From Alphaproteobacteria bacterium (GTDB lineage: Bacteria; Pseudomonadota; Alphaproteobacteria; Bin95), in assembly GCA_963665325.3 (NCBI GenBank), contig CAXXWS020000003.1, positions 928,001 through 992,000 of the forward strand: 64,000 nt of DNA. Direction: 5' to 3'. The notes beneath the pieces were generated by a model, which was not told the origin of the DNA, searched no databases, and saw only the letters and a list, made by a program, of their open reading frames with translations. Position 1 is the stretch's first letter. The number at the start of each line of letters is the position of its first letter. A program made the translations under genes and the position numbers. Shown here in pieces: positions 2,760-23,912 of the stretch.

Positions 2760-2820
2760 GTTACCCGTTACCGTTACCCTCTCTCCCTAGGGGTTCGAGG
2801 CGGTAACGGTTTTCGGTAAC
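2760..2820. repeat. Convergent iteron-like array: 3x GTTACC, CCCTAGGG palindrome, 2x GGTAAC
   Basis: GTTACC at 2760, 2767, 2773; CCCTAGGG at 2785-2792; GGTAAC at 2802 and 2815. Confidence 0.75.
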
Positions 2821-6087: not shown

Positions 6088-6135
6088 TCCGGCATCCCCC
6101 TCGCTGCTTCGTGGAGGTGCCGATGATGCGGTGCC

Positions 6136-7258: not shown

Positions 7259-9352
7259 ATGCGCGGCATCGGCGGCAGCACGCTGCGGGGCGGCCAGACC
7301 GTCTTCCACGGCATCCGCATGTGGGGCCAGCTGTTCCAGGCCGCCCTGCTGTTCGCCGCCTTCATGACCGTCGCGGTGCCGGCCTGGAACCTCTGGCGCT
7401 CGACCTCAGGCGCGGAATGGTATGCCGCGGGCATGGTGACACTGGCCGAGACCAAGCTCGCGCTCGGCTACGAGCGGGACTCGGGCCAGGAAATCCGCTT
7501 TCCCGACGGCACCCGCCGGGTACTCGCCATCCGCGACATCGCCGTCTCGGTGCCGGCTCTCGAGGCGCGCGAGAAGCTCCTGGACGAACTACTGGCCAGC
7601 GCCTGGCTGGGCCTCAAGACGGGCGGCGGGCTGATCGCGGTCTTTCTCGTGGCGTTCTGGTACCGCGGCGCGCGGCTCGGGCGCCAGCGCCGCCTGCGGG
7701 GCGCCGAGCTGGTGAGCGCGGCCGAGCTGCGCCGCCGGGTGCGCCCGGCGCACCTGCGCCTGCTCGACCGCGCGCCCGGCTCAGGCAGCGTGCGGCCCTG
7801 GCGCATCGCCGGCATCCCGTATCCCGAGAGGACCGAGACCCAGCACACGATCGTCTCGGGCACCACCGGCTCGGGCAAGACGGTGCTGATCTCGGACCTG
7901 GTGGCCCAGATCCGCGCCCGCGGCGAGCGCTGCGTGATCTACGACAAGATGGGCTCCTACACCGCGGCCTTCTTCGATCCCGCCCGCGACGTGCTGATGA
8001 ACCCGCTCGATGCCCGGGCGCCCTGCTGGTCGCCCTTCCTCGAAGCCAGGAACCCCCGCGACTTCGACATGATGGCCGCCGCGCTGATCCCGCAGCAGAA
8101 GGACACCGTGGACCCCTTCTGGGTGACGGCGGCACGCCAGCTCTTCGCCAACGGCGCGGGCGTGCTGCGCGAGAAGGGCGTCACGCAGAACCGGGTGCTG
8201 GTCGACCACCTGCTGAAGACCGACCTCACCGCGCTCGCCCAGGCGATGGAGGGCACGGTCGCGCAGTCGATCGTCGATCCCGAGAACCCCAAGACCGCGC
8301 TCTCGGTGCGCGCCATGCTGACCGCCAATCTCGCCGCCTTCGAGTTCCTGCCCGACGAGGGCACGCCCTTCTCGATCCGGGAGTGGATCTCCCGGGAGCG
8401 GCAGGACGGATTCCTGTTCCTGACCTCGCGCGGCGACCAGCATGCCAGTCTCAGGGGGCTGATCTCGACCTGGCTGGAAATCGCGGTCAACGCCATGCTG
8501 TCGCTCGCCCAGGACGATGGCAGGCGCATCTGGGTGATCCTCGACGAGCTGCCGACCTTGCACCAGGTGCCCTCGCTCCAGCCCGGCCTCGCCGAGTCCC
8601 GCCAGTTCGGCGGCTGCTTCGTGCTCGGGGTCCAGGTCGCCTCGGCGCTGCGCGACCTCTACGGCAGGAACGGCGCGGAGACCATCTCGGGCTTGTGCGG
8701 CACGCGGGTGGTGCTGGCCGCCCCGGACCGGGATACCGCGCAGTGGTCCGCCGACAGCCTGGGCCGCAGCGAGGTCGAGGAGATCGCCGAGGGCTACTCC
8801 TACGGCGCCAACACCATCCGCGACGGCGTCTCGCTCACCCCGCGGCGCGAGCTGCGCGCGCTGGCCCTGCCGTCGGAGATCATGCGGCTTGAGAACCTGG
8901 AGGGCTATCTCAAGTTCCCCGGCCCCTTCCCGGTCGCCTCGATCCGGCTCCGGTATGTGAAACGCCCCGCCGCCGCCGAGCGCTTCGTGCCGCGCGAGGA
9001 GGGCGCGGAGCTGTCCGCACGGCCGGAAGACGCGGCCGCTGCCGGGGACGCGCCCGTCGAAGTGCTTGCGGAAGACGGGGAATCGGGGACTCCGGAGTCC
9101 GCGTTCCGGCGGGGCGAGCCGAACCTGCCGCCGCTTCCGGAAGAGACGGACATCGCACCGTCCCGCCGCAATGGCGTTGCGGATGCGGCTGCCGGCGACG
9201 GGACCGGCCCCGGCAAGGCCGGCAACCGGCCGGACGCGCCGGCGCCGGCGGCCGGGGCGCGAGGCGACGGGGAGCCCGATGCCGGCCCCGGACCGGCGGC
9301 GAAGCCCTCCGCCGGCACGGAGGAGCCCGCCGCGCGCCCCGACTGGGTCTGA
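7259..9352 (+). CDS. traD: Type IV coupling protein, TraD/TrwB family
   Basis: Two N-terminal TM segments, LRGAEL, Walker A GTTGSGKT, DPFWVTAAR, ILDELPTL, ESRQFGG; low-complexity tail. Confidence 0.92.
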   Translation: MRGIGGSTLRGGQTVFHGIRMWGQLFQAALLFAAFMTVAVPAWNLWRSTSGAEWYAAGMVTLAETKLALGYERDSGQEIRFPDGTRRVLAIRDIAVSVPALEAREKLLDELLASAWLGLKTGGGLIAVFLVAFWYRGARLGRQRRLRGAELVSAAELRRRVRPAHLRLLDRAPGSGSVRPWRIAGIPYPERTETQHTIVSGTTGSGKTVLISDLVAQIRARGERCVIYDKMGSYTAAFFDPARDVLMNPLDARAPCWSPFLEARNPRDFDMMAAALIPQQKDTVDPFWVTAARQLFANGAGVLREKGVTQNRVLVDHLLKTDLTALAQAMEGTVAQSIVDPENPKTALSVRAMLTANLAAFEFLPDEGTPFSIREWISRERQDGFLFLTSRGDQHASLRGLISTWLEIAVNAMLSLAQDDGRRIWVILDELPTLHQVPSLQPGLAESRQFGGCFVLGVQVASALRDLYGRNGAETISGLCGTRVVLAAPDRDTAQWSADSLGRSEVEEIAEGYSYGANTIRDGVSLTPRRELRALALPSEIMRLENLEGYLKFPGPFPVASIRLRYVKRPAAAERFVPREEGAELSARPEDAAAAGDAPVEVLAEDGESGTPESAFRRGEPNLPPLPEETDIAPSRRNGVADAAAGDGTGPGKAGNRPDAPAPAAGARGDGEPDAGPGPAAKPSAGTEEPAARPDWV

Positions 9353-9353
9353 C

Positions 9354-12344
9354 ATGCTGTCGATCGGCGCGCTCGCCTCGGCGTCGCAGGGCGCGTCCTA
9401 TTACGAACGCGACGGCTACTACTCGAAGGACGATCCGGAGCACCGCGCCGCCAGCGCCTGGGCGGGCAAGGGGGCCGAAGCGCTCGGCCTGAAGGGGCCG
9501 GTCGATCCCGACACCTTCCGCGCCGTGCTCGAGGGCCGGGTGCCCGACGGTTCCGGACGGCAGCTCGGCCGGCGCGGGAGGGACGGGGAGATCCTCCACC
9601 GTCCCGGCCGCGACCTGACCTTCAGCGCCCCCAAGTCCGTCTCCCTCGCGGCGCTGGCCGGCGGCGACGAACGCATCGTGGACGCGCATGACCGCGCCGT
9701 CGCGGCCACCCTCGCCTGGGTCGAGGGGAACGCCGCCGAGACCCGCATGAAGGATGCCGACACGGGCAAGATGGCGCGGGTCGGCAACCAGAAGATCGTC
9801 GCCGCCCGCTTCAGGCACGATACGTCCCGCAACCTCGATCCCCAGCTCCACACCCATGCCGTCCTCGCCAACATGGTGCAGGCGGAAGACGGCAAGTGGC
9901 GCAGCATGGCCAACGAGCGGCTCTACGGATCGAAGATGCTGCTCGGCGCGCTCTACCGCGGCGAGCTGGCCGCCTCGCTGGCGCGGCTCGGCTACGGGGT
10001 AGAGAAGACCCATGCCGACGGGCGCTTCGAGATCGCGGGCGTGCCGCGCGGGGTCGTCGAGGCCTTCTCGACGCGGCGCGCCGAGATCGAGGCGGCGATG
10101 AGCGAACGCGGGCTCGGCGGCTCCGCCGGCAATCCGCGCCTTGCCGAGCGTGCCGCGCTGATGACCCGGGCGGGCAAGCGCGACATCGACCGCGGGGAGC
10201 TGCGGGACGTGTGGGCGAAACAGGCCGCGGATCTCGGCTTCGACGCGCAGGCGCTGGTGGCCGGCGCCCTCGCCCGCTCCGCCTCGGCGCAGCGCGAGGC
10301 CCCGGAGGCGGGCAGGGAGCGGGACCCGGCGGGTCCGGCGCCGGGCGAGGCCCGCACGGCGCCGGCGGCAGACACAGCGCAGCGCGAGGCGGCGGCGCAA
10401 GGGCCGTGTGCGGCGTCGCGGGCCGTCGCCTGGGCGCTGGCGCATCTCTCGGAGCGCGAGGCGGTGTTCGCGCGCACCGACCTGCTCGCCGCCGCGCTCG
10501 CCCATGCGCCCGGCAAGTCGACGATCGGCGAGGTCGAGCGCGAGGTGGCCGCCCTGGAGAAGGCCGGCGCGCTGCACGCCGTCGACATCCCCGGCGCGGA
10601 GGAGTCGCTGGCGACCGCGAAGACCGTCGCCGAGGAGCGCGAGACGATCGCGTCGATGCGGGCGGGCGCGGGCCGGGGACAGGCCGCGATGCGGAGCTGG
10701 ATGGTCCAGGGGCACCTCAACAAGGGACCGCTCACGGCCGGCCAGAAGGAGGCCGTGAAGCTGATCCTGTCGGCGAAGGACCGCACGGTCGGCGTCCAGG
10801 GCTATGCCGGCACCGGCAAGACCACGATGCTGAACCGCGCGCGGGTGCTGGCGGCGAAGAAGGGATACCGCATGGCGGGCCTCGCGCCCTCGGCCTCGGC
10901 GGTGCGGACGCTCGCCGCGGAAGCCGGCATCGAGTCCGAGACCCTGCAGCGCTTCCTCGCCCGCAACGCGGGCGTCGCCGAGGGCCGTCTCACGAGGAAG
11001 GGCGCGAGGGAGATGCGCGCCGCGTTCGCGAAGACGATCCTGGTGGTCGACGAGGGCTCGCTTGCCTCCACCGTGCAGGCCCGCGACCTCTTGAGGATCG
11101 CCAACGCGCTGCGCATCCCCCGCGTGGTGCTGGTCGGCGACGCGAAGCAGCTCGACGCCGTCGATGCCGGCAAGCCCTTCGCCCAGCTCCAGGCCGCCGG
11201 TATGCGGACCGCGGTGATGGACGAGATCATGCGCCAGCGCGATCCCGACCTGAAGGAAGCCGTCGAGGCGAGCCTGAAAGGCGATGTCGAGAAGGCGTTC
11301 GAGAAGCTCGGAAGCAATGTCGCCGAGGTGAAGCCCGACAATATCGCGGGCGCGGTGGCCGCGCGGTGGCTCAGGCTCTCGCCGGAGCAACGCGAGAATA
11401 CCGGCGTCATGGCGCCGTCGCACGAGCTCAGGCAGGCGGTCAATGGGCATATCCGGGAGCGCCTCGCCCGCGAGGGGCGCATCCGCGGGCCCTCGATGCA
11501 GGGCGAACGCCTGGTGTCGAAGGGCTACACCGGTGCCGAGAAAGCGCTCGCGGACAATTACAGTCCCGGAGACATGGTCGCGTTCCACCGCCCCTACAGG
11601 CGGATCGGCGTCGAAAAGGGTGACGAGCGGCGCGTCGCGGGGGTCGACCGCAAGGCCCGCGCGGTGCTGCTCGACGACGGCAGGGGCGGGACGGCCGCCT
11701 GGAAACCCGGAGAGATCGGCGGGCGCCGGGGCGGCAGCGAGGTCTACCGCGTCGAGGAAATCGAGCTCCGGGCGGGCGACCGCATCCGCTGGACCCGCAA
11801 CGATGCCGGCCTCGGGCTGGTCAACAGCCGCACCGCCGAGGTGGTCGCGATGAAGGACGGCCGGGTGACCTTCCGCCTGGAGGACGGGAAGACGCTGGAA
11901 CTCGGGTCGAACGATCCGCAGCTGCGCCATCTCGACCATGCCTGGGCGTCGACCGTGCACGCCTTCCAGGGGCGCACGGTCGACAATGTCATCGCCGCCA
12001 TGGAGGCAAGGCACAAGCATCTGACGACGCAGAAGAGCTTCTATGTCGAGATATCCCGCGCCCGCGACCGGGCCGAGCTGGTCACCGACGACGCGGCCGA
12101 ACTCAGGGCGCAGCTCCAGGCGGTCACCGGCGAGCGCATCGCGGCGCTCGAAGGGATCGGCGAGGCGGCGCGCGAGGCGAAGGAAAGGGCCGCCGGGGCC
12201 GCGCCGGCGGGCCGGATGCAGCCGGATCGGGGAGCCGGACCGGATGCCGGGAAGACACCGGACGGGCCGGCCTCGCCCTCGAAGGAGAGGGAGACGCCCG
12301 CGCCGTCGCGCGGCCGGGGCGCCGAGAGGGACCTCGGACTGTAG
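9354..12344 (+). CDS. traI: MOBF relaxase-helicase (TrwC/TraI)
   Basis: ASYYERDGYY, DLTFSAPKSVS, HDTSRNLDPQLHTH, FSTRR, QGYAGTGKT, VVDEGS, HAFQG, YVEISRAR. Confidence 0.95.
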   Translation: MLSIGALASASQGASYYERDGYYSKDDPEHRAASAWAGKGAEALGLKGPVDPDTFRAVLEGRVPDGSGRQLGRRGRDGEILHRPGRDLTFSAPKSVSLAALAGGDERIVDAHDRAVAATLAWVEGNAAETRMKDADTGKMARVGNQKIVAARFRHDTSRNLDPQLHTHAVLANMVQAEDGKWRSMANERLYGSKMLLGALYRGELAASLARLGYGVEKTHADGRFEIAGVPRGVVEAFSTRRAEIEAAMSERGLGGSAGNPRLAERAALMTRAGKRDIDRGELRDVWAKQAADLGFDAQALVAGALARSASAQREAPEAGRERDPAGPAPGEARTAPAADTAQREAAAQGPCAASRAVAWALAHLSEREAVFARTDLLAAALAHAPGKSTIGEVEREVAALEKAGALHAVDIPGAEESLATAKTVAEERETIASMRAGAGRGQAAMRSWMVQGHLNKGPLTAGQKEAVKLILSAKDRTVGVQGYAGTGKTTMLNRARVLAAKKGYRMAGLAPSASAVRTLAAEAGIESETLQRFLARNAGVAEGRLTRKGAREMRAAFAKTILVVDEGSLASTVQARDLLRIANALRIPRVVLVGDAKQLDAVDAGKPFAQLQAAGMRTAVMDEIMRQRDPDLKEAVEASLKGDVEKAFEKLGSNVAEVKPDNIAGAVAARWLRLSPEQRENTGVMAPSHELRQAVNGHIRERLAREGRIRGPSMQGERLVSKGYTGAEKALADNYSPGDMVAFHRPYRRIGVEKGDERRVAGVDRKARAVLLDDGRGGTAAWKPGEIGGRRGGSEVYRVEEIELRAGDRIRWTRNDAGLGLVNSRTAEVVAMKDGRVTFRLEDGKTLELGSNDPQLRHLDHAWASTVHAFQGRTVDNVIAAMEARHKHLTTQKSFYVEISRARDRAELVTDDAAELRAQLQAVTGERIAALEGIGEAAREAKERAAGAAPAGRMQPDRGAGPDAGKTPDGPASPSKERETPAPSRGRGAERDLGL

Positions 12345-12425
12345 CGGTCCGGTGCGCAGGACTCGTGCGCGAGGGCAGGGAAGACGCCGCTCCCGGCCTG
12401 AAACCGCCCGTTCAGGAGGCATGGA

Positions 12426-12794
12426 ATGGACAGCAAGCGACCCGATACGGCGCCGGACGAGGCCGGCAGGACGGCGAAGCGCACGCCGCGCACGATCAGG
12501 TTCCTCGACCCCGAGTGGCGGCGCATCGAGGCCTTCGCGGACCGTCGCGGCCTGACCGGGCCCGAGTTCGTGCGTTTCGCCGCGCTCGCGGCGATGGAGG
12601 AGGCGCCTGCGGCGCCCGGTTCGTGCGACCGGCTGGCCCCGCTGATCGAGCGGACCTTCCGCTACGCCCATGTGCTCGCGAGCGCCATGCGCGGCAGGAT
12701 GCTCGACGGGGGCCGCGAGAAGGAGCTCGAAGAGCTGGTCGCCGCCGCCCGCGCGTTGCAGGATGAACTGCTGGGCGACGGCCAAGCCGAGTGA
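12426..12794 (+). CDS. Small RHH-like relaxosome accessory/DNA-binding protein
   Basis: RTIRFLDPEWRRIEAFADRRGLTGPEFVRFAAL resembles a ribbon-helix-helix; lies between traI and the candidate oriT. Confidence 0.6.
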   Translation: MDSKRPDTAPDEAGRTAKRTPRTIRFLDPEWRRIEAFADRRGLTGPEFVRFAALAAMEEAPAAPGSCDRLAPLIERTFRYAHVLASAMRGRMLDGGREKELEELVAAARALQDELLGDGQAE

Positions 12795-12915
12795 ACGCGG
12801 CCGCGGCGCAGCCCCAGGTGGACTTCTCCATCCGGATCGGGGGCTCTCCCGGGCACATCGACGGCCCTGGCGAGGGCGACGGAATCCCCCCGGGACCGCC
12901 GATGCCGCGAAGACA

Positions 12916-13195
12916 GGGGCGGTTCCCCGGAGAACCGCGGCCCTATGGAGGCGATGCTCTGGAGCATCGCGGGCCGAAATCGGCGATGCTCCAGAGCATC
13001 GGGGCCGGTTCTCCAGAGAATCGCGCCACACAAACCTCAATGATATCAGCGCCTTGTCCGCGCATCTCCAGAGCATCGACTCGGTCCAACATGCACAGGA
13101 CGCCGCCAGGCGGTGTTTGGCGGCAAATGGCGGGCTCCGGCGGGGCAGGTGCACACCTGGCACGACAGCATCGTCGATGCGTCGGGTGTGAGAAC
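12916..13195 (+). promoter_or_regulatory. Candidate oriT with palindromic CTCYRGAG repeats and F-like nic
   Basis: IR GCATCGTCGATGC (13168-13180) overlaps TGCGTCGGGTGT^G (13178-13190), 12/13 identical to F nic TGCGTGGGGTGT^G as recalled; several CTCCAGAG/CTCTGGAG-centred palindromes upstream. Confidence 0.6.
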
Positions 13196-14113
13196 CGAGC
13201 CGCCTCCGGCGTCGAAAGCAGCACCGACAGGCGGCATTCATGATGGGGGAATCGTCGCCGGGGAACCCGGCGGAGAGGAGCCGCCACGGCGATTTGAGTG
13301 GCGGGCGATGCGGCCGGAGCCGCGGGCAGTCGTGCGCAGCACGCTGCCGGAGGCGAAGCCGGTGCTGTCCGCACCGGTGCGGACAGTCGTGCACGGCGCA
13401 GTGCGGAGGCCGGTGTCCGGCGAAGCCGGCATCGGCGACGCACGGAGTGCTGCGGCGACGAGCACGGCGCGCAGCGCCGGCGCGAGGATGACGAGGCCAG
13501 AGTTCGGCATCGTGTCCGGGAGGAATGCACGGCGCGGCGGGCTCTTTGCCAAGCGGAGCGCGGAGTGAGCGCGAGCGAACGGAGGCGACAGGGATTGCAG
13601 TGGAAATCGCCCGCAGGGCGATTGGAGCGGAAAGCCCGGCCGCGAAGCGGGTCGCCCGGAATCATCGCAGGCTCGCGCGCATGGGTACTCCTGGCCAGCA
13701 GCATCGGCGCGAGCACCATCCGCAACATCTGGATCATCGTCGTGATCGTCACCCGCACCATGATGGTCGCCTTCATCGCCGCCGTCACCGTGCTGCGGCG
13801 AGCATCGCCGTCGGTCGCACCGACAGCACGAACAGGGATGCCGATATGGACGACGGCATCGTGACCGACGCTACCGGAACGTTGATGGGAGGGACAACAC
13901 TGCGCGTACCGGTGCTGATGAATGGAACGCTGCTGATGTTGGTGCCGACGACAAGCGGCGGAGCCGCCGCGGAGCGTGCCGCGCGCAGCGCGGCGCGCGA
14001 CGCGAAGGCGAGCGCCGGTGGCGGCGGCGGGGTCCGAGCAAAACGAGAGAGCCGCGCCGCCCGCCCCGGTTTGCGGTCCGGGGGAGCGGCGCGGCCCGTG
14101 TTGGCGTTGCACG

Positions 14114-15034
14114 TCAGCCGATGAGAACGGGAATGCCGAGCGCCTTCGCCTTGTCGACGAGGTTGGCCGTGATGCCGTTGCCCTCGAAGGCGATGAGGCC
14201 CTTGGGCATGAGGTTGAGCATTTCGTCGTTGCGCCGGAACGGGGCGGCGCGTCCGTGGCGTGTCCAGTTGGGCTTGCACACGACCTGGTCGACGCCGTTG
14301 CTCTCGGCCCACCGGGCGGCGAGCCGGTCGGTGCCGGGGCCGCCGCCGTGGACGATGACGAGGTCGTCGTACTTGGCGCGGGTCTGGTCGAGGCGTCGGG
14401 CGATGGCGTCCGGGTCGCGCACGTCCTTGCCGCCGGCGATGGCGACCAGTGTGCCGCTCGGCAGGTGCGCCTTCGTCTCGCGGTCCTTCCGTGCGCGGAT
14501 GAAGTCGCGCGCATCGATGGCGGCGGAGGTCAGCGCGCCGGTCTGCGAGACGTGGCTGCCGCGCCTCGGACGCCAGACGTCTCCGGTCGCGGCGCGGTAC
14601 TGGTCGGCCGCCGCATCGCGCATCTGCTCGAAGGCGTCGCGGCGGTCGCCGAGGTTCTGCGCCCGCTCGGTCGTCAGCTCGAGCTCGCGGGCCTTGACCT
14701 CGGTGCCGTCCTGGGCGGCTTGCAGGTCGCGCAGCTCGGGGGTGAGCCGGTCGACGGAGCGGTCGAGGCGGCGGACCTGTGCGTCGAAGGCGTTGACGAT
14801 GCCCCACAGCAGGTGCTCTCGCTCGTCGGCGAGCTGGAAGCCGTCGGGTGCGACGCTCTCGGCGAGGATGCGGAACGCTTCGCCCACCGCGCCGACGGCC
14901 TCGTCTCGGTCCCAGATGTCGCGGGGGTCGAACTCGCCGCGCTCTGGGGTTGCGCCGTAGAGCTGCGCGTTCTCGCAGACTGTCGCGGTCATGGACTGGT
15001 CTTGGCTCTCGAAGGTGTCGATATCGAAGGTCAT
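14114..15034 (-). CDS. DUF2493/YspA-like SLOG-domain protein
   Basis: N-terminal coiled coil, then LVAIAGGKD...VIVHGGGPGTDRLAARWA...HGRAAPFRRNDEML...ANLVDKAKALGIPV. Confidence 0.8.
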   Translation of the reverse strand: MTFDIDTFESQDQSMTATVCENAQLYGATPERGEFDPRDIWDRDEAVGAVGEAFRILAESVAPDGFQLADEREHLLWGIVNAFDAQVRRLDRSVDRLTPELRDLQAAQDGTEVKARELELTTERAQNLGDRRDAFEQMRDAAADQYRAATGDVWRPRRGSHVSQTGALTSAAIDARDFIRARKDRETKAHLPSGTLVAIAGGKDVRDPDAIARRLDQTRAKYDDLVIVHGGGPGTDRLAARWAESNGVDQVVCKPNWTRHGRAAPFRRNDEMLNLMPKGLIAFEGNGITANLVDKAKALGIPVLIG

Positions 15035-15075
15035 GATGGATGCTCCCTTGAGCTTGCGGTTGATGCCTGCGAGGC

Positions 15076-15350
15076 GGGGGTGCCTTGCTGTGCCTGATTG
15101 TTGGGACACGCGCGCGCAGGGGAGCCACCGGGACCGGAATGAATGGCCCGATGTGGTGCGCGAGTGGTGCGGGCGCAGGGAGCGAAGCGACTGAGCCACG
15201 GTCGCGCGCCGCATCGGGACTAGGCGCGCAGCGCCGTTTCATTCCGAGTCCCGGCCGCAACGGAGCGAAGCGGAGTGGAGGACCCGCTTTAGCGGGTTGG
15301 CGCACTGAGCACGTGTGGCACGATAATCAGGCACAGCGAGGAACCACCCT
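15076..15350 (+). promoter_or_regulatory. Long imperfect hairpin, Frpo/ssi-like ssDNA promoter candidate
   Basis: GCTGTGCCTGATT (about 15088-15100) pairs with AATCAGGCACAGC (15325-15337) within a roughly 40-bp imperfect stem; distal arm carries TTGGCG...GATAAT. Confidence 0.55.
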
Positions 15351-15470
15351 TTCCCCTGGCACGGTCCCCTTGGGCGGAACGGTCAGGCACGGTGTCCGGG
15401 ATTGACGCGCGGACCTGGCGGCGGCGATTCCGACCTTCGCGGTGGCGACGGACTCCAAGTCGACAGCACG

Positions 15471-15501
15471 AAAAAGGGGCCGGCACCGAAGTACCGACCC
15501 C
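15471..15501 (-). terminator. Rho-independent terminator after ssb
   Basis: Minus strand GGGGTCGGTAC-TTCG-GTGCCGGCCCC-TTTTT. Confidence 0.8.
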
Positions 15502-15528
15502 AGTGGGAGATGGGAGACGATGAGCCGC

Positions 15529-15999
15529 CTAGAACGGAATCAAATCGTCGGATTCCTGGGCGGTGCCGTTCGCACTCGACGCGGCGGCCTCGGCCGGCAC
15601 GGACTCCGCGCCCGCCGCCTGCGCCGCGGGCTTCGCGCCGTTGCCGTTGGGCTTGTCCAAGAACTGGAGCCGGTGGCCCGGCACGACCAGAATCTCGGTC
15701 GAGAAGCGGTCGGAGTCCTCGCCGTCCTTCGTCCAGCGACGCGTCTGGAGTTTGCCCTCGGCGTGGACCAGGCGGCCCTTCTTCGCGTGCTTCTCCAGCA
15801 TCGAGATGAGCCCGTCCTGGAAGGTCACCACGCGGTGCCATTCCACCCGGTCCACCTTTTCGCCGGTCTGCCGGCTGAGGAAGCTCTCGTCGGTCGCGAT
15901 GCTCAAGTTCGCCACGCGCCCCCCGCTCGCGAGATGGTTGACGACGACGTCGGCGCCGAGGCGCCCGATGAGCTCGACCCTGTTGATTCCGAATGCCAT
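15529..15999 (-). CDS. ssb: Single-stranded DNA-binding protein
   Basis: INRVELIGRLGAD, VEWHRVV, EGKLQTRRW, acidic tail DDLIPF. Confidence 0.95.
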   Translation of the reverse strand: MAFGINRVELIGRLGADVVVNHLASGGRVANLSIATDESFLSRQTGEKVDRVEWHRVVTFQDGLISMLEKHAKKGRLVHAEGKLQTRRWTKDGEDSDRFSTEILVVPGHRLQFLDKPNGNGAKPAAQAAGAESVPAEAAASSANGTAQESDDLIPF

Positions 16000-16100
16000 T
16001 GCGGTTCTCCTCACGTGTTCGATATTGACGATGGTCGAGCGGGCGGGACCGGGAACCTCTCGCTCCCCATCCCTTCCGCTCATTCTTCTCCCGCTTCCCT

Positions 16101-16256
16101 CTACCTCGCGTCCGCCGGAACCTCGCGGTCGGGACAGCGACGGGCGAGGTCGTCGGCGAGCGCGTCCCGCACCGCGCCGACATCGAGCCCGAGCTCGGCC
16201 AGCAGCTCGTTGCCGCCCGCGGCGATGGGGTCGTAGTCCGAGTACGTGTCGAACAT
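16101..16256 (-). CDS. Small acidic hypothetical protein (51 aa)
   Basis: MFDTYSDYDPIAAGG... preceded by a GGAGG RBS; co-oriented with ssb. Confidence 0.5.
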   Translation of the reverse strand: MFDTYSDYDPIAAGGNELLAELGLDVGAVRDALADDLARRCPDREVPADAR

Positions 16257-16374
16257 GGCAGGTCCTCCCGGATGCCGCGCCCGGCGGCGGGGAAGCCCAC
16301 CTTCCTCCATCCCGCCGGGCGCTTGCCCGGCACGCGCTTCCCTCTTCCTCCCGACCGCCCTCGCGGGACGCGGG

Positions 16375-17523
16375 TCACGCCCAGGCGGCCCAGCGCATGA
16401 CCGGGTTGAAGTCCGAGACGACCTCGACCTGGTCGAAGCCGAGCTTGGCGAAGACCAGCGCCGCGGCCGCCTCGGCCTCGCTGTCGAAGGTGCCGAGCGT
16501 CTCGCCCGAGGCGAGCTCGATGACGGTGAAGCTCGGGTCCCAGGCCGGCATGCCCCGGAAGTAGCTGGAGCCGTGGTAGGACTTCTCGGCGCACGGGGCG
16601 CATTGCGCGGCTCCCTGCGAGGGCGCTCCGCAGCTCGTGCATTCGGAGCGGGCGCGCCTCTGCCAATAGAGCTCCCGGCTGCGGGCATTGCGGCGCTCCC
16701 GGTCCCGGCGCTCGCTCTCGAGCACGGCGCAGGGCGCGCACCGCGAGCCGCCGTCGTTCACCGCACCCGCGCACCTGACGCACACCCCGGCGGCGCGCCT
16801 GGCGGCGTAGGCCTGTCGCTCCGACCCGCGCCGCGCAATCCGGCACGGCTCGCACGTCGAGCCCCCCTCGATGGCGGGACGCGTGCCGCATGACGTGCAC
16901 AGGCCGGCGGTGCGCCGGGCCTCGTCGCGCCTGCGGCTGCGCTCGCGGCCGATGCGTCGGCGGGTCTCCACCGGGCGCCCACCATAGAGCTTGCCCTGCG
17001 ACATTGCCTTGGCGTAGCGCGCCCGCTCGCGGGCCCGGCGCTTCTCGTTGCATTGCTCGCACAGGGTGAGTCCCTCCGCGGCCGGGGCCTTCCCGCAGTG
17101 CAAACACAACCCGGCTTCGCGGCGCGCCTCGGCCTGCCGGCGGGAGCGCTCGCGTTCATAGGCGCGGGCGTGCTTGGCGTCGCGCCGGGGCAGGCCGGCG
17201 GCACGGAGCCGCGCGTCCCGTGCCCGGCTCGCCCGGTTCGTCTTCTCGGCGCAGGACTCGCAGATGGACCGCTCGGGCGCGGGCGGACGCTTGCCGCACT
17301 TCGGGCACATCCCGGCCGCGACCCGGGCGGCGGCCCGGCGATGATGCCGTGCCCGGTCGGCGGGCCGCTTCTTCGCCGCGCACGGCTCGCACTGGCTGCG
17401 ATGGGGCGCCGGCGGGCGCTTGCCGCATTTCAGGCAAAGGCCAGCAGCGCGGCGTTCAGCGGTCCGCTTGTGATAGCGCTCCAGGTCCCGCGAGCGCCTG
17501 GCCTCGATGTCGAGTTCGCACAT
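16375..17523 (-). CDS. Protein with six tandem C4 zinc-finger repeats and an AP2-like C-terminus
   Basis: Six CxxC-x9-11-CxxC units joined by Arg-rich helices; C-terminal LGTFDSEAEAAAA; AAGGAG RBS. Confidence 0.75.
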   Translation of the reverse strand: MCELDIEARRSRDLERYHKRTAERRAAGLCLKCGKRPPAPHRSQCEPCAAKKRPADRARHHRRAAARVAAGMCPKCGKRPPAPERSICESCAEKTNRASRARDARLRAAGLPRRDAKHARAYERERSRRQAEARREAGLCLHCGKAPAAEGLTLCEQCNEKRRARERARYAKAMSQGKLYGGRPVETRRRIGRERSRRRDEARRTAGLCTSCGTRPAIEGGSTCEPCRIARRGSERQAYAARRAAGVCVRCAGAVNDGGSRCAPCAVLESERRDRERRNARSRELYWQRRARSECTSCGAPSQGAAQCAPCAEKSYHGSSYFRGMPAWDPSFTVIELASGETLGTFDSEAEAAAALVFAKLGFDQVEVVSDFNPVMRWAAWA

Positions 17524-17608
17524 GGGTCGTTCTCCTTGCCGGGGTTGGGAACCAGACGAAGGACGCCCGACCGGCGCGGGCCGGCCGGACGTCCCCGGAG
17601 AGCGCCGC

Positions 17609-17941
17609 TCAGCCGCGCTGCTTGCGGTCGCACAGGATGCCCGCGGCGTGAGACCCCCAGAGCTGCTGGCCGCCGCGGGTGGTGAGCCCGGTGCAGATGA
17701 TGATCTCGGTGCGGGCGGGGCGCATTTCCTTGACCGCCTTCAGCGTGGCGGTGACGCGCTTCGCCCCGCGGCCGCCCTTCTTCGCGGTCGCCGCCCTCTC
17801 GCGGGGCCAGGGGCGGATGTCGCCATCGGCGTACGCCTTGAACCGCTCGACCGCGTATCGCTGGTCGACAAGGCCGCCGCCGAAGAAATGGACCAGGAAC
17901 GTGTCCGCCGTGTTGCCGGGAATCGCCATTGCCGTCGTCAT
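17609..17941 (-). CDS. Hypothetical protein (110 aa)
   Basis: ATG with GGAG RBS, co-oriented upstream of the zinc-finger gene; no family recognised. Confidence 0.5.
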   Translation of the reverse strand: MTTAMAIPGNTADTFLVHFFGGGLVDQRYAVERFKAYADGDIRPWPRERAATAKKGGRGAKRVTATLKAVKEMRPARTEIIICTGLTTRGGQQLWGSHAAGILCDRKQRG

Positions 17942-18241
17942 GGTGCCGTCTCCATTTGCCGCTGATGGGAAACGGCGGAGACGCCTCCCTCCGGGACGTC
18001 GTCCGCCGCCCCGCTTCCGGCCAAACTCTCCTCTCGCCGGTGCGAACCCGCATGGCGGCGACCGTGCGCTGATGGGGTATCGCGGCAAGGCGGAGAACGA
18101 CGGGTGCGAAGATTCCCGGTCCGCTGACGGCCCCATGTTCGAGTGGGGCACCGCGGAAAGGACCGCTGCGCATACCGGCGCACGGTCGATGCCTCTGCCC
18201 AGGCGGTTGCGCGCAAAATTGTTCGCGTCTATCGTCGGGCG

Positions 18242-18454
18242 ATGACCGGACGGCAGTTCATCGCGCGGGTCCGCCGGTGGGCGAGGGTCCGGGGCGTGGA
18301 GGTGCGCTTCGTCGCATCCGAGGGATCCGGCTCGCACGGGACGCTCCATGCGGGCGGGCGAAAGACCACCGTCAAGGACCGCAGGAAGGAGATCGGCCGG
18401 GGGCTGCTCGGCAAGATGCTGGCCGACCTCGGAATCGACCCGAACGACCTGTAG
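18242..18454 (+). CDS. hicA: HicA-family toxin
   Basis: GSGSHGTL...TTVKDRRKEIGRGLLGKMLADLGI. Confidence 0.8.
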   Translation: MTGRQFIARVRRWARVRGVEVRFVASEGSGSHGTLHAGGRKTTVKDRRKEIGRGLLGKMLADLGIDPNDL

Positions 18455-18462
18455 GAGGACCG

Positions 18463-18900
18463 ATGCCCGACAGCTACGACTATCCCGCCACCATCGAATG
18501 CGACGAGGACGGGCGCCACGTCGTCTCGTTCCCCGACTTCGGCTGGGGCGCGACCGACGGTGCGACCCGCGACGAGGCGCTGGCCGAGGCGCGGGACCTG
18601 CTGCGCGAGCTCATCGCGGCGACGATGCGCGAGGGCGGCGCGCTGCCCAAGCCCTCGCCCGCCGGCAGGCGTCGGCCCCTGGTGGTTCCGCCGGTGCAGA
18701 CCGCGCTCAAGGCGGCACTCTACGAGGCGTGGCGCGAGGCCGGGATATCGCAGCGCCGGTTCGCCCGCGACCTCGATGTCGCGGAGAGCGAGGTCCGGCG
18801 CATGCTGAACCCCGATCACGCCACCAAGGCGGCGACCATCGACCGGGCGTTGCGCCGGCTGGGCAAGCGGCTCACCGTGACCGTCGGCGAGGCGGCCTGA
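18463..18900 (+). CDS. hicB: HicB-family antitoxin with HTH
   Basis: YPATIECDEDGRHVVSFPDF...TDGATRDEALAEARD...LPKPS plus C-terminal HTH. Confidence 0.85.
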   Translation: MPDSYDYPATIECDEDGRHVVSFPDFGWGATDGATRDEALAEARDLLRELIAATMREGGALPKPSPAGRRRPLVVPPVQTALKAALYEAWREAGISQRRFARDLDVAESEVRRMLNPDHATKAATIDRALRRLGKRLTVTVGEAA

Positions 18901-19005
18901 GCGGACAGTCCGGCCCACCGGCTCCGCCGTCGGCGGGACGGCGGTACGTACCCCGGCCGGGCCGGCGATGGCGATGGACGAGCCCGCGACTCCATCGCGA
19001 CGAGG

Positions 19006-19266
19006 TTGCGCGCCCGGCTGGTGCGGCTGCTGGAGACGGTGGAGAGCGTCGGTCTCGATGCGCTTCGCGCGCCACATGTCCGACATCTTGACGGCAAGCT
19101 CTGGGAGCTGCGGGTCAGGGCCGAGGGAGGGATCGCCAGGGGGATCTACATGACGGCGGCCGGATGGCGGGTGGTGGTGCTGCACGTCTTCGCGAAGAAC
19201 TCGCGCAAGACGCCACGCCGGACGCTCGCGACCGCCCGGGAACGGATGAGGCAGGTGACGCCATGA
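19006..19266 (+). CDS. RelE/HigB (Gp49-like) toxin, probably N-terminally truncated
   Basis: PHVRHLDGKLWELRV...RVVVLHVFAKNSRKTP; the usual N-terminal roughly 20 aa are absent. Confidence 0.7.
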   Translation: MRARLVRLLETVESVGLDALRAPHVRHLDGKLWELRVRAEGGIARGIYMTAAGWRVVVLHVFAKNSRKTPRRTLATARERMRQVTP

Positions 19267-19548
19267 CGAAGCTGAAGGAACTGAAAGCGCGCTTCATGGA
19301 GGACCCGGAGTTCCAGGAGGAATATGCGCGCATCGACGGGGGGGTATGCGTTGATCGAGGCGCTGGTGCGTGCCCGCAGGGCGGCGAAGCTGACGCAGGC
19401 GGAGCTTGCAAGCCGGCTCGGCACGACGCAGTCGGCCGTTGCGCGGCTGGAGGGCGGGCGGGTGTCGCCGTCCTTCGCCACGCTGCGCCGCTACGCCGAA
19501 GCGACCGGCACGCGGCTGACCGTGGATCTGGTGCCGGCCGGTGGCTGA
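19263..19548 (+). pseudogene. HigA-like Xre-HTH antitoxin with +1 frameshift in a G7 run
   Basis: MTKLKELKARFMEDPEFQEEYARID, then G7 (19338-19344), continuing in another frame as YALIEALVRARRAAKLTQAELASRLGTTQSAVARLE. Confidence 0.8.
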
Positions 19549-19589
19549 GCGCCCGGGATGTCGGCTGGCCGGCGTTGCGGGTTCCCGGG

Positions 19590-19720
19590 GGCAGCTCCGG
19601 CCCCACCGAAGTGGAAATCGTCGATCACCACCGATGGGAGGCGCGTCATGCGCGAGCCCGCCCATTCCGGCGAGACGCTGCGCGACGACCTCGACGCGCT
19701 CGCCATGAGCCCGGCTGCCG
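19590..19720 (+). pseudogene. Relic of a proteic-killer HigB C-terminus and HigA N-terminus
   Basis: GPTEVEIVDHH (compare ...VEIVDYH*) followed by MREPAHSGETLRDDLDALAMS (compare HPGExL). Confidence 0.55.
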
Positions 19721-19846
19721 ACGCTCGACGCCGGCACGGGACTGCCTGCGGCGGGCTGAGGGAGCCGCGCCCGCAGGCCGGCCATACGTATGGCGGACAG
19801 CGGCGCGGCGGCCCCGTCCCCGGAGGCCGCACGCGAACCGGGGCGC

Positions 19847-20098
19847 TCAGTCCCCGGCCTCGAACAGCCGGCGGTAGGCCGCCTCGGCGCGGACGAGACC
19901 GGTGTCGGTCAGGTTCACCGATCTGGCCTTGCCGACCGGATCGGAGATCAGGTCCTTGTCGTGAAGCCGGTCCATCGCCGACCAGTCGAACGACTTCCAG
20001 GTCCGGGCGCCGCCCGTCGGGTAGCGCTCGACGATGCCGAGCCAGAGCAGCGCCAGCACGGCCTCGTCGATCCTGTCCTTCACCCGCTCGTCGCTCAT
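19847..20098 (-). CDS. DUF6429-like wHTH protein
   Basis: IDEAVLALLWL...RTWKSFDWSAMDRLHDKDLISDPVGKARSVNLTDTG. Confidence 0.7.
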   Translation of the reverse strand: MSDERVKDRIDEAVLALLWLGIVERYPTGGARTWKSFDWSAMDRLHDKDLISDPVGKARSVNLTDTGLVRAEAAYRRLFEAGD

Positions 20099-20538
20099 CG
20101 CGCCCGCCCGTCCGGCTCTCCGTCGAGGTTGCTGTCGTCGCCGTCGGACCCCATGACACGCTCCACCAGGTGATCGGTGACGTCCACGAAATAGCTCTCC
20201 AGCTCGGACTGGAGCCGGCTGTACTCCGGCCATACCGCGCGGTCGAAGAACCGTTCCCGCGCCCGCACCATCACCGTCGTGCGCCGCTGGCGCGCGTAAC
20301 GGAAGGTACGCACGCCGTGCTTGCGACAGACCGCCACGAACAGCCGGACCGACCACGTATCGGGGAGCGAGAACTGGAGCTCGACTTCCGGCTCGGGCCG
20401 CTTGCCCGAACCGCCGAGGCGGCCGTGCAGCCGGCCCATCGCGGCCTCCGCGGCGGTGCGCTCCCCCGGACTGCCGGCGTGGCGGAACAGCGCTTCCACC
20501 TTGGCAAGCTTCGCCCTCAGTGCGTCGTCGTCGATCAT
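20095..20538 (-). CDS. Conserved-looking hypothetical protein (DUF2786-like N-terminus)
   Basis: KLAKVEALF...SPGERTAAEAA; ATGA overlap with the downstream gene. Confidence 0.6.
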   Translation of the reverse strand: MIDDDALRAKLAKVEALFRHAGSPGERTAAEAAMGRLHGRLGGSGKRPEPEVELQFSLPDTWSVRLFVAVCRKHGVRTFRYARQRRTTVMVRARERFFDRAVWPEYSRLQSELESYFVDVTDHLVERVMGSDGDDSNLDGEPDGRAR

Positions 20539-20805
20539 CGCGCGCCGTCCGGCTGGATCGGAATAACGACAGCATGATCGAACCCCCGCCGCGCTGTCCA
20601 TGCCGGGCAATACCGCATGGCCCGACGGACGGCGATACGCATACCGCAGGCTGGCGCGGCGCCTGACGGATCGAGCGGGCTCGGCCTCGCGTGGCCGGGG
20701 CCGGGGCCGGGGCCGGTCGAGGATACCGGCGGCGCGGGACGCACCGTCTCGACATAGCCGTGGTCCGACCGGGCGGAGCCCGCTATGATATGACCAGTTT
20801 CATGA

Positions 20806-21060
<255 letters not shown>

Positions 21061-21078
21061 GATAGGCAGTCGGCCCGG

Positions 21079-21528
21079 ATGCGCTATTTCGACACCAGCT
21101 TCCTGGTCCCCCTCATCCTTCCGGAGGCCACCAGCGAACCGGTCGCGGGATTTTTCGAGACCCTGCCGGCGGACGATCTGGCGGTGAGCCATTGGACCCG
21201 GGTCGAGTTCGCCTCGCTGCTTGCCCGCGAGGTTCGCATGGGCAATTTGGAAGCCGCGGCGGCGCACGAGGCGGGCTCACGTTTCGAGCGGATGGTCGAA
21301 GAGTCCTTTGTCGTCCTGTTGCCGAACCGCGACGACTTCGACCAGGCCAGGGACTGGCTCAACCGTTTCGACACCGGTCTGAGAGCCGGCGACGCGCTGC
21401 ACCTCGCCATTGCGGGGAACCACGGGGCGGAGGCGATCTACAGCCTGGACAAAGTGATGATTGCGGCGGGAAAGACGCTGGGTTTGCCGGCAGGCGTGGG
21501 GATCCTCCTTCCGGGCTATGACCAGTGA
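21079..21528 (+). CDS. vapC: VapC PIN-domain toxin
   Basis: YFDTSFLV, E.ASLL, LRAGDALHLA, YSLD. Confidence 0.9.
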   Translation: MRYFDTSFLVPLILPEATSEPVAGFFETLPADDLAVSHWTRVEFASLLAREVRMGNLEAAAAHEAGSRFERMVEESFVVLLPNRDDFDQARDWLNRFDTGLRAGDALHLAIAGNHGAEAIYSLDKVMIAAGKTLGLPAGVGILLPGYDQ

Positions 21529-21649
21529 TGCACCCATGAGTGGGTTGCGGCCGGTTGTCCGTATTGCGAAACGGCGGGGCGAGACTTGAATGCTGTTACA
21601 CGGAGTGCTATATCACCCAGCATGATGGAAGCCGCCCGCGGGGTGAGGA

Positions 21650-22024
21650 TTGCGCACGTTCAAGACCAAGCCCTTCGCGCGCTTCGCCAGGCGCGCGGGA
21701 GTGCCGGATGCAGCCCTGTGCGATGCGGTTTTGCGCGCCGGACGAGGCCAGGTCGATGCCGACCTCGGCGGTGGCGTCCTCAAGCAGCGCGTTGCCCGAC
21801 AGGGACAGGGCCGCTCCGGAGGGTTCCGCGTCATCGTGCTGATTCGCCGGAGCGACCGCTCGTTCTTCGTCCATGGGTTCGCGAAGAGCGATCGGGAGAA
21901 CCTTCGGCGCGGCGAGATCGGGGCGCTGCGCGAACTGGCAAGAGAGTTGTTCGGGATGGACGAACCCGGTCTTGAGGCGATGCTGGCGAACGGGACGATC
22001 AGCGAGGTGAATTGCGATGGCTAA
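21650..22024 (+). CDS. RelE/HigB-2-like toxin
   Basis: DADLGGGVLKQRVARQGQGRSGGFRVI...HGFAKSDRENL. Confidence 0.85.
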   Translation: MRTFKTKPFARFARRAGVPDAALCDAVLRAGRGQVDADLGGGVLKQRVARQGQGRSGGFRVIVLIRRSDRSFFVHGFAKSDRENLRRGEIGALRELARELFGMDEPGLEAMLANGTISEVNCDG

Positions 22025-22334
22025 GCAGTACCGGAGCGAAGTGCTGGCGTCGGTGCATGAGACCGCGCTCGGCATGATGGAGGCGGGCGTGATGGAGAAG
22101 AAGACGATGAAGGTCTTCGACGAGATGTGCCTCACCCCGGTCGAGGAGCTCGCGCCGGAGCGGATCCGGGAGATTCGGCTGGGGGAGAATGCGAGCCAGG
22201 CGGTGTTTGCCCGCTACCTCAACGTGACGACAGGCCTGGTGAGTCAGTGGGAGCGTGGCGAGAAGCGCCCGCGTGGCGCTTCGTTGAAGCTCCTGACGCT
22301 GGTGGCGAAGAACGGACTTGGGACGGTCGCGTGA
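22017..22334 (+). CDS. HigA-2-like HTH antitoxin
   Basis: IREIRLGENASQAVFARYLNVTTGLVSQWERGEKRPRGASLKLL. Confidence 0.85.
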   Translation: MAKQYRSEVLASVHETALGMMEAGVMEKKTMKVFDEMCLTPVEELAPERIREIRLGENASQAVFARYLNVTTGLVSQWERGEKRPRGASLKLLTLVAKNGLGTVA

Positions 22335-22340
22335 CGTTTT

Positions 22341-22475
22341 GTCGGCACCTGTCGGGACCTGTCCTGTCAGGATTGTGTTTCAATCCGGTGACTATTTGTT
22401 GACGGGCTTAGAATGAAGAAGAAAAACATCAATAATAACGGTGGTTTAGTGGAAATAGATGCACAAGTATGGCGC
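22341..22475. other. Putative att end of the conjugative element (arm-type repeats, AT-rich spacer, core)
   Basis: GTCGGCACCT/GTCGGGACCT tandem at 22341-22360, AT-rich 22381-22460, core GCAC-N6-GGCGC at 22461-22475 where integrase homology breaks. Confidence 0.55.
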
Positions 22476-23431
22476 AGGTCGTGAAGATGCACATCCTCCA
22501 GGTCGGCCTCGGATCGGACCCTGATCCAGAACCGGTCCAACCAATTGTCGCTCATGGGCCGGTCGCTCCGAAATGCGGGGAACACCCAGCGGCCTTTCCG
22601 TTCAAGGCCGTCGAGAACAGCACGGGCCGGCTCCGAGAGCCACACGGTTCGGGGGCCCGTCTTGCTGTCGCGGAGGAACAGATGGCCCTCGCGGTAATCC
22701 GGCCATTGCAGAGTGAGAATTTCGCTCTTGCGGCAGCCGGTCAGGAGAAGCAGCCGGATGGCGGCGACCTGCTGCGGTTGTTCCACTTCATGCGCCTTGA
22801 GCCTTGCGGACAGGCGGCGGATTTCCTCGTCGGAGAGGAACCGCTCGCGGCCCTTGCGGCGGTATCGCCGGATGCCCCGGCAGGGGTTGGAACCCTCCGG
22901 GCGCAGGCCCATGGTCTCCGCTTCCTTCATGATGACGGACAGCACCGGCATGGACCGGTCCGCCGCCACTGGCGTCGCGCGCAGACGGGCGAACCAGTGC
23001 CGCACCTCCTGCCGGTCGATGTCGGCAATCGGCCGCCCGGCGAAATGCGGCAGAAGCTGATTGCGGAGATAGTACCGGTTCACTTTGAGCGTCCTGGCCT
23101 TCCAAAGCCGCGCATGGCGCTCGAACACGGTCTCGGCGACGGCTTCGAAGACGGTCACTTCGGGACGGTGCGGCGCTTCCTTGCCCCGCCGGATGGCGGC
23201 AAGCATTTCGGTCGCCGAAGCCCGCGCCTCGACGATGCTCATGTCTTCGGCATTGCCGACGATCTTCCAGACCCGCTCGCCGCGATGCTGGCACTGGATG
23301 AAGAACCGCTTCCTGCCGGTGGGCATCACCCGGACGCCGAAGCCCTTGAGTCTGGCGTCCCGGATGTCGAAGGGTGACTTGCGAGGCTTGAGGGCCTCAA
23401 TGCGGGCTGCGGTAAGGGTAACACTGGGCAT
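22367..23431 (-). pseudogene. Tyrosine integrase with Arm-DNA-binding domain, interrupted just after HDLRHT
   Basis: GFGVRV...RFF arm domain; LLLLTGCRKSE, SKTG, HDLRHT, then unrelated residues. No LLGH box or catalytic Tyr. Confidence 0.85.
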
Positions 23432-23540
23432 GTAGCTCTCCCGGTTCCGGTTGCAGCCGGGGAACAAGCAATGGCAGATTACTTCCCCGGCCGCAGTTTT
23501 TCGGGAGAAACAACAACGCAATATCAGATAGTTAGCACCG

Positions 23541-23912
23541 CTAAGGTGCGTTGTCGGTGTAGTCCTCTCCGGTCCCGAAAACGGTCGTGGGATCGGAGGC
23601 TTCCTGGCCGAAATAGGAAAGATCGATCCGCCAACGGTTCGGCAATTGCGTCCCGGCGGTGACCTGGAAGTTCGCGATATAGCCTGTATCGGTGTTGTCG
23701 TTGCCTTCCGCATCGACGGTCCATCGCCCATCCACCAGACCGGTGAGCACGAAGGTCACGTCGCCGATTTCGACCGCGATCGGCTCCTCCATGGACGACA
23801 GGCTCTCATAGTTCAGGGGGACGGTCTGCGCCCCGGCAAGGCCGCCCGCGGCCACGCCGGCGGCGGCAATTGCAGCGGGAAGCAAGGCCCGCAGAACCCG
23901 GTGTGCGGCCAT
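23541..23912 (-). pseudogene. Secreted porin-like protein, 3'-truncated
   Basis: Signal peptide followed by alternating beta-strand segments; ends abruptly at a GCACC-GCTAA-GGTGC palindrome (23535-23549). Confidence 0.5.

Follow-up and report, generated by a model that had tools for sequence, protein, structure and literature searches.

A conjugative element joined to the catalytic-motif codons of a resident integrase gene: evidence for nested site-specific integration

Integrative and conjugative elements (ICEs) usually integrate in tRNA or housekeeping genes, and the P4-like integrases of genomic islands target tRNA genes. Mx8 carries the attachment site of the element (attP) within its own int gene, and Tn5053 and Tn402, known as "res hunters", are DDE transposons that aim at res or par sites. 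Streptococcal ICEs with serine-integrase triplets are reported to insert site-specifically in traG of another ICE (PMC4701971), a Tn1806-like ICE is reported in snf2 of ICESa2603-family ICEs (PMC12942858), and archaeal integrases of the SSV1 type reportedly have attP inside the int gene, the element's own gene being split (PMC8371274). The tripartite ICEs of Mesorhizobium are reported to possess several integrases, whose ordered recombination reassembles and frees one element that its own recombinases had split in three (PMC5882170), and elements with tandem recombinases comprise the RIT, the GInts and the strand-biased circularizing elements (PMC10214605; bioRxiv 10.1101/2024.06.12.598671). 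Here we describe a stretch of 64,000 nt of an alphaproteobacterial genome ("the window"; positions 928001-992000 of contig C4 in the draft assembly G000, which has five contigs, C1-C5). Within it, a conjugative element that we call ICE-T abuts the truncated integrase gene of another, resident island. The nesting and the site specificity of the integration at this locus are real, and its class of target is unusual and seems not to have been described. We consider it probable that three layers are nested here, namely an island with two integrases, A and B (the A-B island), in a gene, ICE-T at the box II codons of integrase A, and an insertion sequence (IS) in ICE-T.

The product of the open reading frame (ORF) that starts at 23431 on the minus strand is a P4-like tyrosine integrase, in which Pfam, used for domains throughout, recognised Arm-DNA-bind_3, Phage_int_M/SAM_3 and Phage_integrase. 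A prediction made from the letters of the window had held that integrase homology stops right after HDLRH(T), with the region of the catalytic Tyr gone, and this proved correct. The catalytic-domain match ended at position 138 of the 172 positions of the profile, and the protein read ...EDVHLHDLRHTCAS (HDLRHTCAS) before passing into an unrelated tail of 29 residues without the Tyr region. The full tyrosine-recombinase set R..K..HxxR..(H/W)..Y is incomplete in the fragment, which has no LLGH...Y region; because the gene is cut before this region, it cannot encode an active recombinase. Dozens of integrase paralogs were found in G000 by tblastn of the genome, and 15 loci of the same type ("A-type") were compared. 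Two-thirds of them (10 of 15) were full length, with 372-375 aa continuing as ...LLGH...TTLKY..., two of these ten being one sequence at overlapping contig ends. Three were broken at other positions, and two, the window copy and a locus at C4 82064, stopped directly after the motif. The DNA likeness of the window integrase to its paralogs stopped at 22467, and nowhere else in the genome was there a sequence more than 83% like either side of the junction (22466/22467). Past the junction, the GC content was 0.44 over 140 nt on the element side, compared with 0.64 before it, and two tandem copies of a 10-nt repeat lie at 22340-22359, with a related pair at 22348/22363. The AT-rich flank with tandem arm-like repeats had been foreseen as well.

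ICE-T is represented twice in this genome. Copy A, of about 44 kb, lies at about C4 37,340-81,099, and the window holds part of copy B. The two copies were 97.7% identical over 11,179 nt (C4 66276-77449) and 94-95% identical over the next 1.75 kb (C4 77615-79610). The integrase interrupted by copy A was 75.5% identical to the window integrase in DNA over 1,107 nt; both break after the HDLRH codons and are followed by the same heptamer, TTGTGCA. The terminal ~1.7 kb of the two copies were unlike, save for 72 nt at 79% identity and the terminal heptamer, and the terminal cargo differed, consisting of an Xre/ParS-RES pair in copy A versus Phd/PIN and RelE/HTH pairs in the window. ICE-T is conjugative in nature: it has a conjugation module made up of a relaxase, a type IV coupling protein (T4CP) and a type IV secretion system (T4SS), its own site-specific recombinases (in copy A), and defined ends in a specific target with a repeated attachment (att) sequence. 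The T4SS of copy A is of the F type (TraE, TrbI, TraC, TraU, TraN, TraH and TraG_N), and an S26 peptidase is also encoded; the T4SS part of the window copy sits on contig C2. At its far end, copy A carries two tandem intact integrases, Int1 and Int2, whose catalytic domains reach profile positions 169-170 of 172 and which are oriented opposite to the flanking integrase fragments. The corresponding integrase end of the window copy is absent from the assembly. The part of ICE-T in the window also encodes a single-stranded DNA-binding protein (SSB) and several toxin-antitoxin pairs.

The junction recurs in other genomes. When the 37 genomes of the family were searched at the DNA level, the AT-rich end with its junction turned up only in G000 and in one further genome, G016. 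We then used the codons HD..H(T/S) followed by TTGTGCA as a search pattern, with the reversed pattern as control. This pattern was present in 2 of the 37 genomes of the order (twice in G000, three times in G016) and in 3 of 401 class-wide genomes (twice in G000, three times in G042, twice in G226), the last two belonging to another family than G000 and G016. In total, 10 sites were found in 4 of ~435 distinct genomes from two families, whereas the reversed control gave 0. The original prediction had called for a survey of integrases broken at the same codon, and its central claim, a conjugative element nested at the conserved HxLRH(T/S) codons, is borne out by these 10 junctions together with the two ICE-T copies that end at the same nucleotide. 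At all 10 sites an integrase-like frame runs up to the motif and meets a stop within about 2-37 codons, and the GC content falls from 0.54-0.69 to 0.35-0.48. Moreover, 8 of the 10 sites carry one of two conserved subterminal end types, a feature outside the search pattern; copy A matches the first type weakly, while one site (L169) matches neither. The subterminal motif ATAGTCACCGGATT was exact in the window and in three other ends (L165, L166 and L167) and had a near form in copy A and L171, and a motif related to the 10-nt repeats was present in element ends of G016, G226 and G042. As a genome-scan probe the subterminal 14-mer hit 120 loci over unrelated phyla, which is the random level, and it was not used. 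One end type was identical over 140 nt between G016 and G042 (L163, G016 C1:693265 onward; L170, G042 C1:4354582 onward), which are of different families, and this points to a recent horizontal transfer of the element. The interrupted targets were 37% to 100% identical to the window integrase; among them were A-type integrases, one of the ICE-T type with 53% identity to Int1, and further ones at 37-52%. G042 holds a complete relative of ICE-T, ~85.5 kb long, between the 5' and 3' fragments of an integrase. This element occupies 547,540-633,060. Its 5' junction is at 547523, its internal T4CP is 77% identical, and its far end has two integrases whose relative orientation is that of copy A, followed by an integrase 3' fragment that starts with HDLRHS. 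A decayed version of ~92 kb is present in G226.

The far (left) ends of these elements show what the element itself may bring to the junction. In copy A, G042 and G226, the left ends abut integrase 3' fragments and repeat the motif codons. Each left junction bears its own copy of these codons, which differs at synonymous or other positions from the codons of the 5' fragment, and on the element side the residues are HDICHT for copy A and HDLRHS for G042. Therefore, attP of ICE-T appears to hold a degenerate mimic of the motif and then the heptamer, and the crossover would fall within or beside the second His codon, a placement coarser than a single base. Because attP would carry this mimic and TTGTGCA, any tyrosine-recombinase gene that keeps the motif could serve as the bacterial attachment site (attB), and since the motif is fixed by catalysis, such a target would be conserved as a tRNA gene is. 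At its far junction, copy A meets the 3' end of a B-type integrase that starts at its own motif codons; nucleotide identity of this end is 77-81% to seven of the B 3' ends and 72-74% to another three that are more distant. In intact modules the A and B integrase genes abut. The flanks of copy A, A 5' on one side and B 3' on the other, therefore imply that ~1.1 kb, comprising the 3' part of A and the 5' part of B, was replaced, likely by recombination of the occupied site with a second, equally good site in B. Because both junctions are in the same codon phase, precise excision of copy A would leave an in-frame A::B gene. The left end of copy A was unique in G000 (blastn). A 3' integrase half with a matching core, which had been expected for the window copy too, is not in the draft assembly: apart from the B-type far flank of copy A, neither tblastn with five C-terminal queries nor blastn with the left end of copy A found an orphan A or B 3' fragment in G000.

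The resident island has ends of its own. About 130 nt upstream of integrase A were kept in 14 copies with unrelated outer flanks, and the island boundary had a motif ACACC... followed by a palindrome GCACC-N4-6-GGTGC in 14 of 14 copies, one of them with a compensatory variant. No conserved end was found right after B in the 12 aligned copies, conservation ceasing at the end of B. With a conserved end upstream of A and nothing kept after B, the A-B pair is therefore the module for integration that forms one end of larger islands; relaxase-like genes of these islands lie 15-25 kb from it. It has two recombinases, not the three of RIT elements, and lacks a conserved end past B. The original prediction had also proposed that the resident would be silenced until ICE-T excises and that an ordered excision would finally restore the porin-like gene; G000 holds 10 full-length A and 11 full-length B paralogs, and these could act in trans for the island whose integrase A is cut.

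This island divides a gene. The ORF at 23541-23912 resembles the first 121-122 residues of a ~343-aa protein, whose gene is intact in 6 of 16 same-genus genomes. The missing 3' part lies at C5 332847-332170 and is 75-86% identical to the relatives; a 13-bp core is repeated beside it at C5 332835-332847, and the sequence joined across this repeat matches the uninterrupted gene of the relatives. Contigs assembled from public sequencing runs bridge the junction of island and gene at 23548-23560 with 0 differences (X19 record 24 and X18 record 12). Hence the cut in a porin-like gene that had been proposed stood, as did the expectation of its 3' end beside a matching core, while the label "porin" could not be confirmed. 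The fragment had no Pfam match, and a full-length relative gave a sub-threshold match to OMP_b-brl (E 0.0074, 16.9 bits, with a cut-off of 28.7); this relative has a hydrophobic leader at its start and ends in ...SLRYSF. The similar cores that had been suggested at 22461 and 23535 did not survive scrutiny. The window has 10 occurrences of the pattern GCAC-N6-GGYGC, where 6.0 +/- 2.6 would be expected, and at least as many were attained in 9 of 100 shuffles; at this chance level the resemblance has no evidential value. At 22461, one half of the site consists of integrase codons and the other of the element end, and 23535-23549 is the conserved terminal palindrome of the island, the actual flanking repeat being the 13 bp at 23548-23560. 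Adjoining the split gene is a gene similar to PAP2/vanadium haloperoxidases (23917-25308, minus strand), with a paralog of 80% DNA identity at C1 2299684-2301167, and at C1 ~2301150-2302100 a paralog of the split gene contributes its first ~25 codons to a fusion with a paralogous autotransporter barrel fragment.

Based on these observations, we propose the following order of events. The A-B island, with its two abutting P4-like integrases, would have entered the putative outer-membrane gene via the 13-bp core, leaving the 5' part of the gene in the window and carrying the 3' part to the far end of the island. The ~44-kb F-type ICE-T would then have integrated site-specifically in integrase A at the box II codons H-D-L-R-H-(T/S), integration being presumably catalysed by Int1 and Int2. 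Later, a multicopy IS of 4.4 kb would have inserted in ICE-T. By cutting the integrase, ICE-T may affect the mobility of the resident island.

Several other explanations were weighed against this nested integration. Ordinary decay, in which homologous or illegitimate recombination among integrase paralogs, or a deletion, strikes the most conserved stretch without any target specificity, draws on the dozens of paralogous integrases and the many rearrangements in G000, and the A 5'/B 3' flanks of copy A do need a recombination between two genes. We regard it as unlikely, since the 10 sites in 4 genomes share one base-exact breakpoint and one heptamer that is not part of an integrase, in targets that range so widely in identity, and since 8 of these sites carry one of the two conserved subterminal motif types. 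About as unlikely is a short mobile end-cassette or a remnant that targets the motif, with ICE-T merely adjacent. The unlike terminal ~1.7 kb of the two ICE-T copies would suit such a cassette, as would the two examined junctions of G016 that have no ICE-T-like DNA behind them, and a cassette may lie behind some of the remnant junctions. Against it, integrase halves enclose copy A at a distance of 44 kb and the G042 element at 85 kb, and both elements hold conjugation genes and, at the far end, tandem integrases in the same orientation.

The original prediction had itself named, as an alternative, a switch like that of Mx8 or SSV1, in which attP would lie within the element's own integrase gene and the fragment would be its own int(N), reading out into the target. 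The element side of the left junctions indeed resembles a piece of an integrase (HDICHT, HDLRHS), so that attP could plausibly have arisen from such a gene. As an account of the fragment, the switch is very improbable. The fragment reads into ICE-T and not outward, and only ~130 nt upstream of the fragment start the island meets the chromosomal gene at an att junction of its own. Ten full-length A genes lie in integrated islands, and ICE-T has two intact integrases elsewhere. In addition, the copies of ICE-T are far more alike than the integrases that flank them (97.7% versus 75.5%), and the far flank of copy A is B-type rather than A-type. A chimera of the assembly at a repeat can almost be dismissed. 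Contig ends overlap in this draft assembly, and the IS at 2513-6897 joins unrelated halves; against this, neither side of the junction at 22466/22467 is more than 83% like another place in the genome, run contigs with 0 differences cover the junctions, and the same type of junction exists in three other genomes, two of them single-contig.

A number of points nevertheless weigh against the nested integration as we read it. The survey pattern was derived from the junctions that the survey then recovers, and because the reconstructed attP itself fits the pattern, some of the matches may be element-element junctions or remnants. Half of the 10 junctions have an open frame of only 41-147 aa upstream (L163 62, L165 70, L167 147, L170 41 and L171 55). 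The DNA beside the two examined G016 junctions (L028 and L029) is not ICE-T-like; in DNA and protein comparisons, the 80 kb to the left of them matched ICE-T only in a TrwC-like helicase at 45% and two small ORFs, and these junctions may belong to other elements or remnants. Since the flanks of copy A come from two genes, an additional deletion of ~1.1 kb or two target sites must be assumed. The left junction of the window copy is missing from the assembly, its left part being on C2, which starts inside the element. One run contig with 0 differences spans 22438-22750 across the ICE-T junction, with 29 nt on the element side, fewer than the 31 nt required, so support there is thin. No excision product, circular form or activity was seen in the assembled contigs of the public runs, and no credible excision joint of ICE-T among them, the listed joints being short-sided and derived from paralogs. 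These contigs are short unitigs, parts of the locus that they leave uncovered are uninformative, and the runs may be the assembly's own source; metagenome runs with a small share were set aside.

Table 1. Coordinates of the features of the nested locus, as positions of the window
Feature	Coordinates	Strand	Basis
IS/transposon-like element, 4.4 kb (rve transposase, AAA_22 ATPase, HTH), cuts ICE-T copy B	2513..6897	-	Pfam and copy search
ICE-T copy B, right-hand ~15.6 kb, cut on the left by the 4.4-kb IS-like element	6898..22466		Identity to copy A
Type IV coupling protein, TrwB/TraD type	7259..9352	+	Pfam TrwB_AAD_bind E 6.4e-142
TrwC-type relaxase-helicase, true start uncertain	9066..12344	+	Pfam TrwC E 1.9e-87, AAA_30 E 2.1e-46
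Phd/YefM antitoxin and PIN toxin pair	20821..21528	+	Pfam
RelE (PF06296) toxin and HTH antitoxin pair, terminal cargo	21650..22334	+	Pfam
Tandem 10-nt repeats, TGTCGG.ACC-like, candidate arm-type sites	22340..22372		Repeat search
Subterminal motif ATAGTCACCGGATT, ~85 nt inside the ICE-T end	22382..22395	-	Comparison of element ends
ICE-T terminal heptamer, TTGTGCA on the integrase strand; junction 22466/22467	22460..22466	-	Identical at all 10 junctions
A-type tyrosine integrase, 5' 965 nt (codons 1-321 and 2 nt), ends in the HDLRH codons	22467..23431	-	Pfam and paralog alignment
Leader and end region of the A-B island, including terminal palindrome 23535-23549	23432..23547	-	Alignment of 14 copies; 76-86% nt identity to paralog copies
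5' fragment of putative outer-membrane beta-barrel protein gene; last codons and stop from the island	23541..23912	-	Intact gene of relatives
13-bp att core ACACCGACAACGC (minus strand), repeated beside the 3' part of the gene on C5	23548..23560	-	Direct repeat

The IS of 4.4 kb has 29 further full-length copies at 99.8-100% identity and one split copy, spread over all five contigs. In the window it joins two unrelated halves, whose partners flank another copy on C2, and this joint between C4 and C2 reflects either an exchange between IS copies or a mis-join of the assembly. Target duplications of 4 bp were seen beside it, CCGT in ICE-T and GGTC in an autotransporter gene. The latter gene, at 50-2512 of the window, is large, autotransporter-like and Calx-beta-containing; its beta-barrel is cut by the IS, and the rest of the barrel is at C2 29667. 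Elsewhere in the ICE relatives, a tandem array with an 8-bp period was present at C4 41791-41901, C3 ~1020440-1020750, C5 ~41860-42110 and C1 ~576870-576985 of G000. Contig C2 begins at the position equivalent to just past this array, a start that suggests that the assembler broke there. The terminal HTH antitoxin gene was tried as a tracer of the element and dropped, being found in many contexts without the AT-rich end.

Repeats at the contig ends were identical or nearly so: the start of C3 equals the start of C5 inverted, the start of C4 equals C1 ~788-791 kb, the end of C4 equals C2 ~107-110 kb, the end of C5 equals C2 ~185-188 kb, and the end of C3 equals C1 ~804-807 kb. The five-contig assembly is therefore unfinished, and some loci are counted twice. 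Two families of short dispersed repeats, ~270-370 nt long, were also observed (window 48109-48405, 53842-54207 and 51650-52023); they have dozens of copies at 70-97% identity and look REP- or MITE-like. A second family of elements, which we call ICE-K, was found in integrase genes at the codons of the D-x-K-(T/S)-G hairpin (C3 1011596-1065419 and C1 574980-575420 of G000). The ICE-K in C3 splits an A-type gene, with residues 1-278 at one end, residues 253-374 at the other and 16 bp duplicated, and in C1 the same ICE-K end lies against this motif in another integrase. A fragment of one integrase in G016 spans only KTG to RHT.

We lean towards the hypothesis, held with rather modest confidence, that ICE-T belongs to a lineage of "integrase hunters", whose natural attB would be the box II codons in the tyrosine-recombinase genes of other elements, recognised via a mimic in attP, and that ICE-K acts alike at D-x-K-(T/S)-G. 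Such a landing site would be conserved and harmless in any genome that hosts integrative elements, and the resident would be disabled or ridden. A target in catalytic codons would explain how these ICEs find a conserved site across bacterial families; since the recombinase gene of the resident is cut, it would also mean direct conflict or hitch-hiking between mobile elements, and it would offer a route to the build-up of nested, immobilised islands in multi-replicon genomes. If ICE-K is included, integrase genes would be a general battleground and docking site for mobile elements. A caution for annotators is that an att junction may lie behind an "integrase pseudogene" that stops at box II.

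No description of an ICE that aims at the catalytic-motif codons of integrases was found in the literature searched, which did not extend to subscription journals and supplements. Among the described systems, the nested ICEs of streptococci share with ICE-T a site-specific entry into a conserved gene of a resident element, which yields a composite element. They differ in their integrases, which are of the serine type in the traG case, and in their targets, genes for a coupling protein or snf2, whereas ICE-T has tyrosine integrases and cuts the catalytic codons of the resident's integrase. As with Mx8 and SSV1, an att site divides an integrase gene at this locus, and the ICE-T attP region resembles integrase coding sequence; in those systems the element splits its own gene, while here the split gene belongs to the resident and ICE-T keeps two intact integrases. 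The P4-like integrases that target tRNA genes have the same combination of Arm-DNA-bind_3 and catalytic domains and likewise use an attB kept by selection, but the target of ICE-T is a protein-coding motif in mobile DNA and the target gene is not regenerated at the junction. With Tn5053 and Tn402, ICE-T shares the homing on the recombination apparatus of other mobile elements, being itself a tyrosine-recombinase ICE that aims at a coding motif. Several integrases are involved in the tripartite ICEs of Mesorhizobium as well; in the present case there are two separate elements, and ordered excision is only a proposal. Finally, both the A-B module and the Int1-Int2 pair of ICE-T resemble RIT, GInts and the strand-biased circularizing elements in having at least two tandem tyrosine recombinase genes at one element end, and the A-B module, with its two recombinases, is set apart from RIT by gene count and ends.

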